The position numbers and the translations under genes were made by a program. A stretch of DNA of 64,000 nt, taken from contig OZ240248.1 in NCBI GenBank assembly GCA_965198235.1, positions 3,552,001 to 3,616,000 of the forward strand, written 5' to 3'. Numbering within the stretch: position 1 is the first letter of the stretch; each line of letters begins with the position of its first letter. This document shows, piece by piece, positions 26,513 through 32,682 of this stretch. This DNA comes from Candidatus Poribacteria bacterium (GTDB lineage: Bacteria; Poribacteria; WGA-4E; WGA-3G). The notes below the pieces were generated by a model. The model was given only the letters and a program-made list of their open reading frames with translations. It ran no database searches and was not told the DNA's origin.

Positions 26513-28429
26513 ATGCAATTCCTAAACCCTGCCGCGTTTTATCTGCTGGGCGTTATTCCGATTGTGGTGGCACTTCACTTTCTGAAATTACGCCGCCATA
26601 CCCGCCTCGTTCCGAGCATTATGTTTTGGCTCTCCACTGACGAAGACCGGAGAGCAAATGTCCCTTTCCAACGACTCCGTAACCTACTCCTCCCACTGCT
26701 ACAGGTGCTGTTTTTGTTGCTCCTCATTTTCAGCGTCGCGCGCCCCGCGCTACGTAGACCCGGATTCATGCCCGGAAAAGCAATCCTCATCCTTGATAAT
26801 TCCGCGAGTATGTCGTCGAAAGAGATGGGGCAAACCCGCCTCACACTCGCAAAACAGGAAGCACAGCAGTACATTAAAGAGGTTGCCGCGAGCGGTGGGA
26901 TGATGCTCATGGTGACGAATTCCCCTGAAACCTACATCCAACAAGCTTTTACAACGGATACCTCGAAACTCCAGCAAGCGATAGCAGACATCGCTCAGAC
27001 CCATGCACCGCGTAATCTACGTCCTGTCTTCGATGCAGCGACACGCTATGCGGATTCGCCGCAAGACAAGATTGTCTTTATCAGTGGGACGTTTGAAAAC
27101 CTACCCGATACATCGCTGCCGGTACAGAAAATCAGAGTGGGTGGGAATGCAGAGAATATCGGTATCGTTCGGTTCAGCGTTGAGATGTTAGAGGATCGTT
27201 ATGAAGTCCTAATCGGCATTCAAAATTTTACGGATACGCCGACGGAATTAGACGTTCAATTGGCGGTGGAGAATGTTCCACTTGATGATAGAACGATGTC
27301 TATTCCTCCGGGTGAAACCAAATCGGTGCTGTTTTCAGGGGATCCGAGTGGTTTAGAGGGAAAGATTCTTAGCGGGCATCTTAATGTGGATGATGACTTT
27401 CCACTTGATAACAGTGTTTGGGCACTCCTATCTGCTGTCCCGTCACTGCGAATTTTGCTTGTGAGCGACAATCGAAAATCGTTGCTACCTGAACTTTTGA
27501 AATCTTATGGAGATCACGTTAAACTGGATTTGGTTGAGCCAGCGGATTATCACGGCACTGGCGATGCGGATGTCGCAATCTTTGATGGTGGCACGCTCGC
27601 TGGACGCGAGGCTATCGGCCCCCCCACGTTATATGGAAGGTCTGAAATTGCCTCTGGAACGGCTTTGGTCTTCATCGCACCCGGTAACAACCTGCCTTTC
27701 ATTCGGGAAGATGTTCCGATTGTTGAAACGGAGACAACACCTGCGCGCGTTATCAAAGAGGATGGGAATCACCCGCTCATGGAGAGTGTATCGCTGCAGG
27801 GGTTACAGGTAAGCGAGTCTATACACCGAGCGTTGCCACTCTGGGGGCGTTCGCTTGTTGAAACAGAGCAAGGGGCGTTGATATGGCTCGGTAGCAGATC
27901 AGACGCTCGACTTCTTGTTTTCGAGTTCGACGCGTTTAACCCCGAAATCTCTACGTTTGCGCTGACTGTTCCCGATGGACCGCAATTTATCTATCAGTGT
28001 TTAGCGTGGTTTGAAGCGGGAACTGCCCCACTGCAGCCGCTCGAGTCTCAAGGCGGTGGAACCCGGCACGCGTTCCGAACTGGAGAACAGGTGAGGGTCG
28101 CGTTGACACGCGAGGGACGCACGCTTCACGTGCAGAAACCGGATGAAACGAGGGTTGGATTGGATAGTCCGATATTCACTGAAACGGATCAGATTGGAGT
28201 TTACACCCTTTTTGCTAATGATGTGCAGCTTGAACGGTTCACGGTCAATTTGCTGAACGTTACGGAATCGGCACTGTCGCTTTCACCAACAGCAGCGATT
28301 GCAGACCCTTCAATGGATGTAGAAGGCGGATTGCAACCGATGGTGCAGGAGATATGGCGTTGGTTTGCGCTTGCGGCACTCCTGCTTCTCCTGTTGGAGT
28401 GGTGGTTTTATCATCGGAGTAGTCTGTGA
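26513..28429 (+). CDS. BatA and vWA domain-containing membrane protein
   Basis: N-terminal MQFLNP...LHFLK...PS BatA motif, MIDAS DNSASM, C-terminal TM ...LLLLLEWW. Confidence 0.88.
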   Translation: MQFLNPAAFYLLGVIPIVVALHFLKLRRHTRLVPSIMFWLSTDEDRRANVPFQRLRNLLLPLLQVLFLLLLIFSVARPALRRPGFMPGKAILILDNSASMSSKEMGQTRLTLAKQEAQQYIKEVAASGGMMLMVTNSPETYIQQAFTTDTSKLQQAIADIAQTHAPRNLRPVFDAATRYADSPQDKIVFISGTFENLPDTSLPVQKIRVGGNAENIGIVRFSVEMLEDRYEVLIGIQNFTDTPTELDVQLAVENVPLDDRTMSIPPGETKSVLFSGDPSGLEGKILSGHLNVDDDFPLDNSVWALLSAVPSLRILLVSDNRKSLLPELLKSYGDHVKLDLVEPADYHGTGDADVAIFDGGTLAGREAIGPPTLYGRSEIASGTALVFIAPGNNLPFIREDVPIVETETTPARVIKEDGNHPLMESVSLQGLQVSESIHRALPLWGRSLVETEQGALIWLGSRSDARLLVFEFDAFNPEISTFALTVPDGPQFIYQCLAWFEAGTAPLQPLESQGGGTRHAFRTGEQVRVALTREGRTLHVQKPDETRVGLDSPIFTETDQIGVYTLFANDVQLERFTVNLLNVTESALSLSPTAAIADPSMDVEGGLQPMVQEIWRWFALAALLLLLLEWWFYHRSSL

Positions 28430-28602
28430 GTAGAATCGTTTTTGTGGTGAAACATATTGCCGATGAAGTGTTGCTGGCGAGGTGTTTCTGCGTATTTCTG
28501 CGTATTTCTTTTTCCCCAAGGAAACCTCGCCAGCGATAGCGTAGAAGTCTAAATTCTACTATTTCTTACGACAATCGCGATGCCTACTGTCTTCTTTTAA
28601 TT

Positions 28603-30231
28603 CTATTCAATGTCTATGGCACTCAGAATTCTCTGAAGCAGTTGGGCTTTTGGTATCACTCCTGCTAAACGATCAACAGCCTTTCCATCTTGGAACACGA
28701 TATAAGTCGGAGTTGCTCTGACCGGATATTTTTGGAGCGTTTGTCGACCATTCTTAATATTCAGTTTCGCGACAGCAAACGTGTTCCGTTTCTCTAAGGC
28801 AATTTCGGCGACAACTGGCGCCATCTGTCGACAGAACGGTCAGCCATCCTTTATAAACTCAAGCAGGATAGGAACTTCTGATCCGAGCACAAGGGTATTA
28901 AACGTCGCATCCGTGACTTCAAATGGGATGCCGGAGGTTTTACTGGCGGTGGTAAAACTAATGTTGATGTCGGTTGAATTGCCAGCAGCGTCCTTGACTT
29001 TCCCCGCAATGACGTAGGTTATCTCGTTGCCAAGTTCTTTGCCTTTTACCAATTCAAGCGTTCCCTTATTGCCTGCAATTTTGCCGAGCCATCCGACATC
29101 AGCACCTGCTGCGGTTTGCAGTGCGATGTTGCCGGTTACCTCTTCGCTGAATTCGACTTGTATGCGCCCACCACTGTTAAGTGCTTCAGGGTCAACGTCC
29201 TTATCACCGTCATTGACGCTTCCGCTGGTAATTTTGGGTGCCTCGGTGTCTGGTACAGCGACGGTATAAGCGAGCGTCTGGTTTCCATCTGCCCAAGTGA
29301 TCGTCAAAGCGAGGGGACCTGGGTCGAAGGGACCCGTGATTCGCATCCGTTTGCCAATGATTCGAGCCGTTCCTGTGCTTACAGTGACATCCTCTGGTGG
29401 ATTGTCAAAAGTAAGGGTGATGGTATCGTCGGCAGCGAGTTCCGAGTTGCCTGCTGGGTTCGCGCTAACGAACGCTGCGGGGGGTCTGATGGTATAGTTG
29501 AGCGTCTGAGTGCCATCCGCCCAAGTGACGGTCAATATGAGTGCGCCTGGGTCGAAGGGACCTGCGATTTTCACAGTTTTGTCAGTGACTGTGGTGGTGC
29601 CTGCGCTCACCGTAACATCCTCTGGTGGGTTATCAAAAGTAAGGGTAATGGTATCGTCCACAGTTAGTTGCGATTGGACTGCTGGATTCGCGCTAATGAA
29701 CGCTGCCGGGGTTCTGATGGTATAATCGAGCGTTTGGGCTCCGCCATTCCAAGTAAGCGTCAGGGCAAGGGGACCTGGGTCAAAGGGACCTGTGATTGTC
29801 ACGATTTTGCCATCGACTGTAGCGACCCCTGCGCTCACTGTAACGTCCTCTGGTGGGTTGTCCAAGGTAACGGTGATAGTATCATCTACGTCAAGCTGCA
29901 AGTCGGTTGCTGGATCCGCTCTAAGAAACACCGGAGTACTAACAAAGACTACAGGCGGAGGGATAGTTTTGCCGAAGTTTGCGGCGACGAGCGTCAGATC
30001 GAGGATATTGACGGTGCCGTCCCCGTTGACATCTGGGTTAGGGGATTGGTCTGCGGTGGGTGTCGCTCCGAAGTTTGCGGCGACGAGCGTCAGATCGAGA
30101 ATGTTTATCGCGCCGTCGGCGTTGACATCAGATGCTCTTAGGGTGTCGAGATCCACATCTTGTGTATAGCCTACGGTTAAATTAGTGAGGATTAAACAGG
30201 TCGTTAGGAATAAAACGGTGATTTTTTTCAT
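28603..30231 (-). CDS. Putative secreted selenoprotein (542 aa): signal peptide, dockerin, 3x76-aa repeats, Ig-like domain, thioredoxin with UPFC
   Basis: ORFs 28840-30231 and 28603-28824 are in one frame, joined by TGA(28842-28840)-CCG-TTC-TGT-CGA-CAG. The thioredoxin fold spans the TGA (VTDATFNTLVLGSEVPILLEF...U-P-F-C...RATPT). Confidence 0.85.
28809..28830 (-). promoter_or_regulatory. Candidate bacterial SECIS hairpin
   Basis: mRNA CGACAGAUG-GCGC-CAGUUGUCG starts about 10 nt after the UGA and has a G-initiated apical loop. Confidence 0.5.
29257..29934 (-). repeat. Three tandem 228-bp (76-aa) intragenic repeats
   Basis: F102, F178 and F254 are in register. Shared DDTITLTFDNPPEDVTVSAG...ITGPFDPGPLALTITW. 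Confidence 0.9.
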
Positions 30232-30252
30232 CTGTTTTTCTCCGTGGATAGT

Positions 30253-30320
30253 TTATGCTTGTGTGCCGTGCCATTCTTGAACTGCTTCGGAAATCGCTGG
30301 CAGATTTTCGATTGTGGTTT
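30253..30320 (-). pseudogene. Degenerate duplicate of the 3' end of the MtaA/CmuA gene (duplication scar)
   Basis: tgccattcttgaactgcttcgg...atcgct...agatt.tcgattgt.gttt matches 30985-31052. Confidence 0.8.
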
Positions 30321-30355
30321 TACCACCGAAGCTACAAGTAGGAAATTATATAACT

Positions 30356-30964
30356 TTATTCAGTTTCATCAATCCCTAAGCTTCCAAGGATTTGTTGCAC
30401 CAGTTCAGCCTTAGGCTTTGCTCCGATGAAGCCCTGGACAATTTCTCCATCTTTGAATACGATATAGGTGGGCGTTCCACGAATGTGATATTCAGCCGTT
30501 TTCTCCAGTTGGGTATTTACATCCAACTTGACGAAACTAAATATCTCGCGATATTCCAATGCAACTTCTGCGACCACCGGTCTCATCAGTATGCAAAATG
30601 CTCAGGTATCGTCTTTAAATTCTACCACAATGGGGAGTTCGGAACCCAAGACAATATCGTCAAACGTCGCATCCGTGACTTCAAACGGGATACCGGATCT
30701 CCTACCAAAATGGCTTGCGACGCGTGTCAAATCGAGGATATTGACGGTGCCGTCACCGTTGACATCCGGGTTAAGGGGCTGATCTGCGGTGGGTGTCGTG
30801 CCAAAGTTTGCGGCGACGAGTGTCAAATCGAGAATGTTTATCACGCCATCGGCATTAACATCGGAGGCACTCAGGGCATCAAAAACCGCGTCTTGTGTGT
30901 AGCCTACAATTGAACTTGTAAGCATTAAGCAGGTCGTTAGCAGTAAAACGGTGATTTTTTTCAT
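30356..30964 (-). CDS. Putative secreted selenoprotein (202 aa): signal peptide, dockerin, thioredoxin with UAFC
   Basis: ATG 30964 gives MKKITVLLLTTC and two DVNxDGxxNILDL repeats. In-frame TGA(30604-30602)-GCA-TTT-TGC-ATA-CTG continues into ORF 30356-30586 (RGTPT cis-Pro loop). Confidence 0.85.
30560..30595 (-). promoter_or_regulatory. Candidate bacterial SECIS hairpin
   Basis: mRNA UGCA-UA-CUG-AUGA-GACC-GGU-GGUC-G-CAG-AAGU-UGCA. Apical loop GGU lies 23 nt 3' of the UGA. Confidence 0.5.
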
Positions 30965-30984
30965 CTGTTTTTTCCGTATGTGGT

Positions 30985-32013
30985 TTATGCATGTGCTTGG
31001 TGCCATTCTTGAACTGCTTCGGGAATCGCTTGGAGATTCTCGATTGTCGTTTGAAGTGGGATTGCACACTCCGGTCCGATCAATGGGACACCTGCCTCAA
31101 GGTTTTTTACGACCTCTGCTTTAACGTCTTCCGGCTCTTTAGAAAACAGCGTTTCGGGGTTGTTGATGTTTCCGACGAGGGCAATGCGCTCCTGAACGAT
31201 GTCCATGGATTCTTGGGGTTCGTTTTTGGAATCGTAGTGGAAGGCGGACATGCCGGTCTGTGCGATGTACTCCATTCTATCAACAGTGCGCCCGCAGATA
31301 TGCAGGATTAAGGGAATAGGGATCCGTTCAACAAATTCGATGTGGAGGTCCCGAAGATAGCGTTGGTAGTATTCGCCACTGACGAGATCGCCTGTGGCGT
31401 GGTCGGGGAGCGTCAGCGCGTCGGCACCTGCCTCAATTTGTGCGACCCCGAATTGTACGGTGGCTTCCTTCATCCGATCGAGTGCGAGTTTCGTTTTACC
31501 GGGATCGTCAAGTGAGAGCAACAGGAAGGGTTCAACCCCGAAGCAGTGGTAACCGAGCGACCAGGGTCCCATCGTTTTCCCGATGACAGCGATTTCATCG
31601 CCGTATTCTTTCTTCAGGATTTTAATCGCTTCGAGGACGCACTGGGTATCGGGATGGGTCAAGAAATCGTCCGGTATAGCGATGTCGTCAACATCTTCCC
31701 AGATCGGTTCTCGCATTCTAACGGTGGGCCAGTTGTCCTTCTGTTCCCACTGAATTTTACAACCGAGTGCACTGGATTCTTGAATGATCGTGAAAACAGG
31801 CATGATGGTGTCGAATCCGAGTTCGGTATATCCTGTGGCGGCGAGTCGCGCCATGAGTTCCGGTTCTCGATTTGCCTGTGGGAAAGGGGCATCAACGAGA
31901 TCCATCAGTTCGACTGTAGCAACAGAAGTAGGGTTGCAGATAGGCGTGCGGTCGGTCGGTTCATTACGGAGCGCGGCGAGCACCCGTTCACGACCTGTCA
32001 TCGGTGTTTGCAT
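30985..32013 (-). CDS. MtaA/CmuA-family methylcobamide methyltransferase (URO-D superfamily)
   Basis: MTGRERVLAAL, GPWSL, QIEAGAD, Zn ligands LHICG and PECAIP. Confidence 0.85.
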   Translation of the reverse strand: MQTPMTGRERVLAALRNEPTDRTPICNPTSVATVELMDLVDAPFPQANREPELMARLAATGYTELGFDTIMPVFTIIQESSALGCKIQWEQKDNWPTVRMREPIWEDVDDIAIPDDFLTHPDTQCVLEAIKILKKEYGDEIAVIGKTMGPWSLGYHCFGVEPFLLLSLDDPGKTKLALDRMKEATVQFGVAQIEAGADALTLPDHATGDLVSGEYYQRYLRDLHIEFVERIPIPLILHICGRTVDRMEYIAQTGMSAFHYDSKNEPQESMDIVQERIALVGNINNPETLFSKEPEDVKAEVVKNLEAGVPLIGPECAIPLQTTIENLQAIPEAVQEWHQAHA

Positions 32014-32025
32014 CTTCAGTTTCCT

Positions 32026-32682
32026 TTAGGTTTGTTGGCTCGGAGCAGAAAGCACGCCGCGTGCGGTGCCCATCTCTTCTTCTCGCAGGACGACTCTGAC
32101 GTTCGGGGCGCGGATCAGCAGAAGTCCGATAAGTGCGTCATGGGATTGTCCGCATGCAAAACTGACCGTGTCATTATTGTCGGTTTCAATGCTGTCCATT
32201 TCGCCCAATTTCATCAAGCCGCCTGCGATCGCTGAGATTCGTCGTGCTGCGCCTCTGCCTTCACCATTTGCACTCACCTGATAGGTGCCGTTTCCAGTTG
32301 AATCGACGGTGATGGTGAGTCGCGATTTTCTATCCAGTATGTTTAAAGGGCGTGGTTCGGTATGGGTGTTTGATGCGAGTTTGCATGCCTCCAAGAAAAC
32401 GCGACGACACGCGGCTTCATGAACGTTTTTACAAGGGAAATAAAGCATGCCTTCGGGGGTTTTTAGCATGCCACCGAGTGTCTGCATTGTTTGGGCAACT
32501 TCCTTGATTCTCTCGGTAGCACCTGTCATTTGGCTATAGGTATGCACCAGAAAAGCGGGGAAATTCCTTCCAGTCGTTGCATCGGCAATTTGCTGGCAAT
32601 AGAGCCCAATGGTGATGTCATGGAAGTGTGGATCGATGGGTATGAGTTCAATGCGTCTACCGATGTCAACAATGCGTCGCAT
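32026..32682 (-). CDS. Hypothetical protein
   Basis: RBS GAGGA and ATG 32682. Co-oriented with and tightly spaced to its neighbours. Confidence 0.7.
   Translation of the reverse strand: MRRIVDIGRRIELIPIDPHFHDITIGLYCQQIADATTGRNFPAFLVHTYSQMTGATERIKEVAQTMQTLGGMLKTPEGMLYFPCKNVHEAACRRVFLEACKLASNTHTEPRPLNILDRKSRLTITVDSTGNGTYQVSANGEGRGAARRISAIAGGLMKLGEMDSIETDNNDTVSFACGQSHDALIGLLLIRAPNVRVVLREEEMGTARGVLSAPSQQT

Follow-up and report, generated by a model that had tools for sequence, protein, structure and literature searches.

Tandem genes for putative exported, dockerin-bearing thioredoxins with a predicted active-site selenocysteine in Candidatus Poribacteria

Whether an in-frame TGA ends a gene or is read as selenocysteine (Sec, U) is the question raised by a locus of Candidatus Poribacteria, which we analysed within a window of 64,000 nucleotides (positions 3,552,001 to 3,616,000 of contig OZ240248.1). 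Here a minus-strand open reading frame (ORF) of 463 aa at 28840..30231 ends at a TGA (28842-28840), past which the frame stays open for 78 more codons, up to a TAG at 28605-28603. Translation of this TGA as U gives a 542-aa product, that of gene A, which reads ...LLEFIKDG-U-PFC-RQMAPVV...VRATPTYIVFQDG... and has VRATPTYIVF downstream. Immediately upstream of gene A, on the same strand, lies a tandem paralog, gene B (30356-30964, 202 aa), which has the layout of gene A without the stalk and an in-frame TGA of its own at 30604-30602 (...VVEFKDDT-U-AFC-ILMRPVV...). We conclude, with a probability of about 0.85, that both are intact selenoprotein genes for exported, dockerin-anchored thioredoxins carrying Sec in the active site. 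The original prediction, made for gene A from the DNA letters, had proposed a secreted dockerin-stalk-thioredoxin selenoprotein. Its description of that gene holds: the ORF ends and the frame runs on to 28603 at the coordinates it gave, the TGA replaces the first Cys of a thioredoxin CxxC motif within a Pfam match that crosses it, the cis-Pro loop that it placed downstream is seen as T-P-T in the sequence, and its stalk resolves into three repeats of ~76 aa and a Big_5 domain. The second gene, B, was overlooked. The features of the two genes are listed below in window coordinates.

28603..30231, minus strand: gene A whole (putative signal peptide, dockerin, Ig-like stalk, thioredoxin), 542 aa, stop TAG at 28603-28605
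30160..30231, minus strand: gene A N-terminal signal-peptide-like segment, ~residues 1-24, by inspection
29980..30132, minus strand: gene A type I dockerin, residues 34-84, two DxNxDGxxNxxD repeats, PF00404 (Dockerin_1) E 1e-10
28948..29955, minus strand: gene A stalk, three ~76-aa repeats (residues ~93-326) and Big_5 (residues 328-428, E 7.6e-11)
28627..28920, minus strand: gene A thioredoxin domain, residues 438-535 of 542, PF00085 E 9.3e-17, PDB thioredoxins E 1e-19
28840..28842, minus strand: gene A predicted Sec codon UGA, residue 464, motif U-P-F-C, U in 16/16 orthologs read
28801..28824, minus strand: gene A SECIS-like core, AUG GCG CCA GUU GUC GCC GAA AUU (SECIS, selenocysteine insertion sequence)
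28807-28822, minus strand: gene A core stem GGCG/CGCC with an 8-nt loop
30356..30964, minus strand: gene B whole (putative signal peptide, dockerin, thioredoxin), 202 aa, stop TAA at 30356-30358
30713..30865, minus strand: gene B type I dockerin, residues 34-84, Pfam E 2.1e-12
30389..30682, minus strand: gene B thioredoxin domain, residues 95-192, Pfam E 8e-19
30602..30604, minus strand: gene B predicted Sec codon UGA, residue 121, motif U-A-F-C; among orthologs read, U in 21/22 and Cys in 1/22
30560..30595, minus strand: gene B SECIS-like interrupted hairpin with a GGU apical loop, from RNAalifold

The thioredoxin match in gene A covers positions 4-101 of the 103 in the PF00085 profile and runs through the TGA without a break, and the scores of 61.4 bits in gene A and 68.0 bits in gene B stand against a Pfam gathering cut-off of 23.5. 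Aligned to each other, the thioredoxin-coding parts of the two genes have a mean column identity of 79% and share the TGA column. The genome from which the window was taken (5.17 Mb in two contigs; 96.3% complete and 5.3% contaminated by the tool's figures) holds all the components of Sec decoding for which the original prediction had asked the genome to be searched. We found SelA (517.7 bits), the SelB wing domain (70.1 bits, within a 671-aa frame), SelD (359.8 bits) and, ~170 nt from the selB match, a tRNA-Sec(UCA) of 78.1 bits, which ARAGORN also called as tRNA-SeC with anticodon tca. The gene for SelD, at C1:3115227-3116150 (L005), contains one in-frame TGA, so SelD is probably itself a selenoprotein too. 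In the same genome TGA terminates 291 of the 1341 open frames of at least 400 codons, and two gene A orthologs use TGA as their own terminal stop; TGA is thus an ordinary stop codon here, which rules out its genome-wide reassignment. On these sequence grounds it is strongly supported that the UGA at the first position of the thioredoxin motif would be decoded as Sec by the SelA, SelB, SelD and tRNA-Sec of this genome.

The TGA is kept among relatives at the same position. The short gene, represented here by gene B, had a full-length match in 22 of 24 congeneric species genomes, with one TGA in 21 of these and none in one, and the translations agree, giving U in 21 of 22 orthologs and Cys in the remaining one (EF-C-GFC). 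Among the matches listed, the long type represented by gene A occurs in 23 of the 24 congeners, each time with exactly one TGA, and every one of the 16 orthologs that we extracted and read has U. A search of the Poribacteria family at E <= 1e-25 matched 110 of its 112 genomes. By a manual count of rows among the matches listed (78 weaker matches lie beyond them), near-full-length matches, taken as E <= 2.5e-53 and with identity down to 48%, contain exactly one TGA in 94 of 106 cases and no TGA in 12. Those with a TGA reach down to 51% identity; the 12 without one come, among others, from all three genomes of a single genus. Another row of the family has three TGA and one TAA and looks degraded. 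In the 16 genomes of three other families of the order no exported TGA-bearing type was matched; a single match, to a frame of ~110-190 aa with 35-44% identity, came from 15 of them, and two matches from the remaining one.

Protein databases tell the same story from the other side. They contain full-length dockerin and thioredoxin proteins of ~200 aa at 48-72% identity, in which the U column is occupied by Cys (11 of 11 in one alignment and 30 of 30 in the A6 alignment), together with dozens of 120-aa dockerin-only entries at 73-100% identity that cover 46-59% of the query; the three of these that were aligned all terminate exactly at ...FKDDT. Full-length Cys forms and entries cut at the TGA are the two populations expected for a selenoprotein. 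A comparison with homologs had been named beforehand as a way of judging the locus, and it came out with TGA or Cys at that column and conservation continuing beyond it. The expectation that annotation pipelines would split gene A was also borne out, as its 463-aa and 73-aa pieces, like the 120-aa and 76-aa pieces of gene B, are stored as separate proteins in public collections, where JGI/IMG members of the 76-aa cluster go by the names 'thioredoxin 1' or 'thioredoxin-like negative regulator of GroEL'. Contigs from RNA libraries place the locus in four metatranscriptome runs of one study, and gene B is covered on both sides of an unchanged TGA by one such contig (30070-31100) and by a shorter piece.

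A bacterial SECIS element, by the criteria of the bSECISearch literature, is a hairpin immediately downstream of the UGA with a G in the apical loop. Single sequences folded after the two UGAs were no better than their shuffles (z +0.89 and -0.81), and a scan of 27000-32500 against Rfam (E <= 10) gave nothing at either UGA, the presence of a bacterial SECIS model in Rfam being unchecked. The sole Rfam match there, an S4-Bacteroidia leader at 28290-28338 on the minus strand (23.5 bits against a gathering cut-off of 34.7, E 0.12), is probably due to chance. In alignments, relatives of gene A share at +21..+36 a stem, GGCG/CGCC, closed by an 8-nt loop, and those of gene B share at +10..+45 a 12-bp interrupted hairpin whose apical loop is GGU; pairing is retained in 100% and 94.6% of cells, respectively. 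When the partners were slid, pairing fell to 26-67% in gene B and to 25-50% in gene A, except that a slide of -3 in gene A also gave 100%. A single SECIS common to both paralogs was considered and rejected, the consensus energy of A and B together being ~0; each paralog has its own hairpin.

Two indirect tests say more than the pairing and its changes do. In the 16 gene A orthologs codons +7..+13 (A-P-V-V-A-E-I) each use one codon only, with an entropy of 0.0 bits, and over the conserved degenerate codons +6..+11 synonymous entropy is 0.0 bits against 0.69-0.90 in the flanks up- and downstream. The 21 gene B genes show a weaker dip, 0.40 against 0.94-0.95 bits. The residues themselves follow the codon at the active site: P-V-V fills positions +8..+10 in all 34 distinct short genes of the Sec form, while the 30 Cys-form database proteins have PIV in 17, PTV in 6, PTI in 3, PVI in 1 and PVV in only 3, and of the two Cys-form loci both have PIV and neither PVV. 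An RNA element lying over these codons and required only together with UGA would account both for the synonymous freezing and for the coupling of P-V-V to the UGA forms.

The predicted product of gene B was modelled from a 35-row alignment with a predicted local distance difference test score (pLDDT) of 88.3 and a predicted template modelling score (pTM) of 0.77. An N-terminal helix at residues 2-20, of low confidence, fits a signal peptide; the dockerin reaches pLDDT 82-96 and the thioredoxin 94-97 per 10-residue block, with U121 directly before the helix 122-137. Foldseek superimposed this model on E. coli thioredoxin (2trx) with a TM score of 0.93 and a root-mean-square deviation of 0.9 A. 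By sequence the closest solved relatives are bacterial thioredoxins in the PDB, whose WCGPC motif has its first Cys aligned to U. The models thus lend strong support to a thioredoxin domain of the classical fold, in which the U-x-x-C redox centre sits at the N-terminal end of helix 1. The full-length model of gene A, built with 13 close orthologs, gave pLDDT 28-67 in its dockerin and thioredoxin parts, and of it we used the stalk alone. The stalk (residues ~100-430) is all beta, at pLDDT 79-96 per 10-residue block, each of its three repeats and Big_5 being modelled as a beta-sandwich, and Foldseek related it to tandem immunoglobulin (Ig) domains, an RTX adhesin extender and S-layer proteins. 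Its length varies, the 13 aligned orthologs (loci L041-L085) having from 2 to 5 of the ~76-aa Ig-like repeats in proteins of 470-692 aa. In the ortholog at L075 a second, duplicated Big_5 domain is inserted.

Both genes have a type I dockerin scoring well (42.0 bits in gene A and 47.5 in gene B against a cut-off of 22.9), with two calcium-binding repeats, DVNADGxINILD and DVNGDGTVNILD, intact and conserved in all orthologs aligned. A search for cohesin proteins in the genome, also suggested with the original prediction, returned 7 cohesin modules above the Pfam cut-off in 5 ORFs. Three of these, of 1249-1548 aa, have leucine-rich repeats (LRRs), one or two cohesins and their own dockerin, with FlgD_ig at the C-terminus; another, of 545 aa, consists of cohesin and dockerin, and the last, of 857 aa, has an N-terminal cohesin and a C-terminal FlgD_ig without LRR or dockerin. 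In two of the four FlgD_ig proteins, the 857-aa protein and one LRR protein, a Por_Secre_tail match below the Pfam cut-off overlaps the FlgD_ig tail. None of the five ORFs has a carbohydrate-binding module (CBM) at E <= 1e-4, and a multi-cohesin scaffoldin with a CBM, the hallmark of a cellulosome, was thus not found among them. A complex prediction for the gene B dockerin and the cohesin of the 857-aa protein with two Ca scored 0.12 against a mark of 0.32 with controls absent, and so counts on neither side of the question of binding. Elsewhere in the genome there are about 25 more dockerin matches; a further match, at C1:4642269, had appeared to contain one TGA, which proved to be an ordinary gene end. 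We also noted a cluster of four large genes on one strand at C1:4893000-4912900 (L174), in which two genes with LRRs, two cohesins, a dockerin and a FlgD_ig tail (1521 and 1548 aa) alternate with LRR, dockerin and FlgD_ig genes of 704 and 756 aa, with weak N-terminal PSCyt1 matches.

The putative signal peptide, recognised by eye, begins with MKK or MRK, continues with ~17 hydrophobic residues and ends in GYT, SYA or GHA before Q/E-D. An 'LTTC' within it might be read as the mark of a lipoprotein; its Cys is not conserved among orthologs, and a lipobox is unlikely. The genome further encodes one DsbD_TM protein and one secretin, and it has nine matches to Por_Secre_tail.

Taken together, these observations suggest the following scheme. 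A hairpin 10-45 nt after the UGA, lying within the codons for M-x-P-V-V-A, would aid decoding of the UGA as Sec. The N-terminal signal peptide would carry the protein across the cytoplasmic membrane by Sec-pathway export, with the secretin as a possible further export route, and the type I dockerin may then dock the enzyme onto the cohesins of the large LRR-cohesin surface proteins encoded elsewhere. In gene A the variable string of Ig-like domains would keep the enzyme away from its anchor. Outside the cytoplasm the enzyme would act as a thiol-disulfide oxidoreductase, either reductase or isomerase, for which the single DsbD-type membrane protein is a candidate electron source, and selenium could make it highly nucleophilic and keep it from being irreversibly over-oxidised in an oxidising compartment. 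In thioredoxin CxxC variants, more oxidising, isomerase-like behaviour accompanies an aromatic residue in front of the resolving Cys.

Several points weigh against selenoproteins of this kind and have to be set beside the evidence above. The incorporation of Sec is predicted from sequence, and we infer likewise the signal peptide, the export route, the binding of cohesins, the substrate and the electron donor. The TGA counts and the P-V-V coupling were drawn from related genomes and are not independent. In the gene A hairpin there is one double-sided change (CG to UA), a count reached by 112 of 500 shuffles, and in the gene B hairpin none; there is too little variation, covariation is not significant, and the two genes do not share one in-register structure. 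The redox motifs U-P-F-C, U-A-F-C and U-I-Y-C differ from WCGPC and have no Trp before the first position, and the NCBIfam thioredoxin equivalog TIGR01068, with a cut-off of 96.8 bits, was not reached (64.4 and 66.1 bits). Sub-cut-off scores together with a non-canonical motif mean that equivalence with cytoplasmic TrxA is not supported; no dedicated NCBIfam model matched. The pair is flanked by URO-D on the upstream side and BatA/VWA on the downstream side, and BacA, a methyltransferase and others also lie in the neighbourhood; there is no redox partner next to the genes, and these neighbours offer no functional link. As for the RNA libraries, contigs in them cannot prove transcription, and among the pieces listed none bridges the TGA of gene A.

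If the TGAs were true stops, the locus would consist of broken genes, or of a dockerin protein followed by an N-terminally truncated thioredoxin fragment. Public collections do store the four pieces separately, the 76-aa piece even under the name of a thioredoxin. However, a thioredoxin severed between its strand 1 and its CxxC helix is unable to fold alone, the first listed ATG of the downstream piece of gene A sits 6 codons beyond the TGA, conservation is continuous across the TGA, and a 'break' in the identical column in 94 of 106 family matches, down to 51% identity, is incompatible with decay; we give this explanation next to no credence. Very improbable, too, is that the UGA is passed by near-cognate read-through with Trp or Cys, or is simply leaky, with no selenium involved. 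Against such read-through stand the full Sec system of the genome, the position of the UGA exactly at the catalytic column where homologs have Cys, synonymous freezing at the distance expected of a bacterial SECIS, P-V-V tied to the UGA forms and TGA as an efficient stop elsewhere in the genome; in its favour, the hairpin covariation is not significant and no selenium-containing peptide has been seen.

A further explanation accepts real selenoproteins and concerns only their location: the enzymes might be periplasmic or released free, the dockerin-like module being a calcium-binding or other interaction module with no cohesin anchor. This is possible, though we lean away from it. Genes A and B carry no outer-membrane export tag, when four of the five cohesin ORFs carry a FlgD_ig-type C-terminal domain; these ORFs have one cohesin in three cases and two in two, with their own dockerin in four of five; dockerin matches (~25) outnumber the 7 cohesins; and non-cellulosomal dockerin-like modules without known partners are widespread. 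Against a free enzyme stand the dockerin repeats, intact in every ortholog aligned, the presence of cohesins in the same genome, and a stalk of 2-5 Ig-like domains, which makes most sense for a displayed enzyme. The dockerin-anchored selenoenzyme that we prefer may be extended to a cell-surface 'redoxosome', in which Sec thioredoxins, plugged by their dockerins into the cohesins of eukaryote-like LRR proteins and held on species-variable Ig-like stalks, would reduce or reshuffle disulfides of sponge matrix or cell-surface proteins where the symbiont meets its host. Because the UGA follows the dockerin (and, in gene A, the stalk), a shortage of selenium would on this view yield dockerin-only products that still occupy cohesins, and the supply of selenium would gate the amount of active enzyme displayed on the surface. 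In this full form we regard the idea as speculative and unlikely.

Thioredoxins with Sec are not new in themselves. A UxxC thioredoxin (PF00085) figures with the characterised selenoproteins of prokaryotes in a published table that refers to Kim et al. 2015 (PMC13188914), the GOS marine survey lists thioredoxin selenoproteins and a 'Trx-like 1' family, normally UxxC (PMC2398784), and the two sources catalogue many thioredoxin-like UxxC families, among them a 'TlpA disulfide reductase family' and other thioredoxin-like selenoproteins (PMC13188914). The products of genes A and B would resemble the Sec-containing bacterial thioredoxins in fold, Pfam family, Sec at the first residue of the redox motif, the decoding logic of SelA, SelB and SECIS, and the existence of Cys-containing homologs. 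Those thioredoxins are small and, in the passages of these surveys that concern them, described without export signal, dockerin or stalk, whereas here the thioredoxin is fused to both a predicted signal peptide and a type I dockerin, to which gene A and its orthologs add 2-5 Ig-like modules; the dipeptide of the motif is P-F, A-F or I-Y instead of G-P, and the motif has no preceding Trp. The architecture is new (an exported dockerin protein, plus a stalk, with likely cohesin display); the chemistry and the decoding are of a known kind.

Other systems offer partial parallels. Extracytoplasmic oxidoreductases of the TlpA/ResA/CcmG/DsbE type, fed by DsbD or CcdA, are exported, as the products of genes A and B would be, and have a CxxC or UxxC centre within a thioredoxin fold; a DsbD-type protein occurs in this genome. 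Proteins of that type are membrane-anchored or periplasmic and belong to the Pfam families Redoxin, AhpC-TSA and Thioredoxin_8, whereas genes A and B best match classical cytoplasmic-type thioredoxins, and their anchoring would be by dockerin. With cohesin-dockerin systems they share a two-repeat type I dockerin on an enzyme and cohesins on large secreted proteins in one genome; the cargo of cellulosomes is glycoside hydrolases, whereas here it would be a redox selenoenzyme, and instead of multi-cohesin CBM scaffoldins there are carriers of one or two cohesins each, with LRRs in three and their own dockerin in four. Selenof/Sep15 and Selenom of the eukaryotic endoplasmic reticulum are also signal-peptide-bearing selenoproteins of thioredoxin fold outside the cytosol and tethered to a partner, but their sequences are unrelated, their SECIS is the eukaryotic one in the 3' untranslated region and their motifs are other, so that the likeness is an analogy only.

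The original prediction had known no description of a dockerin and thioredoxin selenoprotein, and in the literature that we searched no paper is listed as describing a dockerin-linked selenoprotein; outside that literature, the supplementary tables of selenoproteome surveys and of Slaby et al. 2017 might list the family. Because each gene of the family is stored as a pair of seemingly unrelated pieces, surveys of function in sponge symbionts miss it. Known selenoproteins are mostly cytoplasmic, and the family would add to them an enzyme that is exported and apparently anchored, and to cohesin-dockerin biology a cargo that is a redox rather than a carbohydrate-active enzyme. SelA and SelB are reported to co-occur in most sponge-symbiont bins (Slaby et al. 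2017, PMC5649159), which the family may partly explain. The frequent alternation of Sec and Cys among close relatives forms a natural series and, together with the P-V-V coupling, could be used to study the benefit of selenium to an extracytoplasmic thioredoxin and the constraint that a SECIS places on its host protein.

The origin of the pair can be read from the DNA between the genes.

30232..30340, minus strand: gene A leader, duplicate of the 3' end of URO-D together with the gene B leader

This segment of ~110 nt agrees with 30965-31073 on the same strand at 85% mean column identity. Since the leader of gene A copies both the 3' end of URO-D and the leader of gene B, the pair arose by a tandem duplication, which carried along the tail of the upstream URO-D gene. 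In four relatives (G004, G006, G018 and G024, at 4774269, 5133365, 3029896 and 5163198, respectively) a third tandem paralog adjoins the pair, with stop-free frames of 257-261 aa at 42-46% identity; URO-D holds that place here. Several congeners have further unlinked Sec and Cys paralogs (e.g. G002:C1:2206054; G008:C1:2309694 and 2315370), and another Poribacteria record (L130) contains a more distant paralog with an in-frame TGA, ...FWAVW-U-GAC..., in a different thioredoxin-like context. Finally, contigs of two of the metatranscriptome runs (X5 and X8) join 29476/29478 to 30717 with 31-33 foreign letters between; they probably come from a related strain whose dockerin genes are arranged differently.

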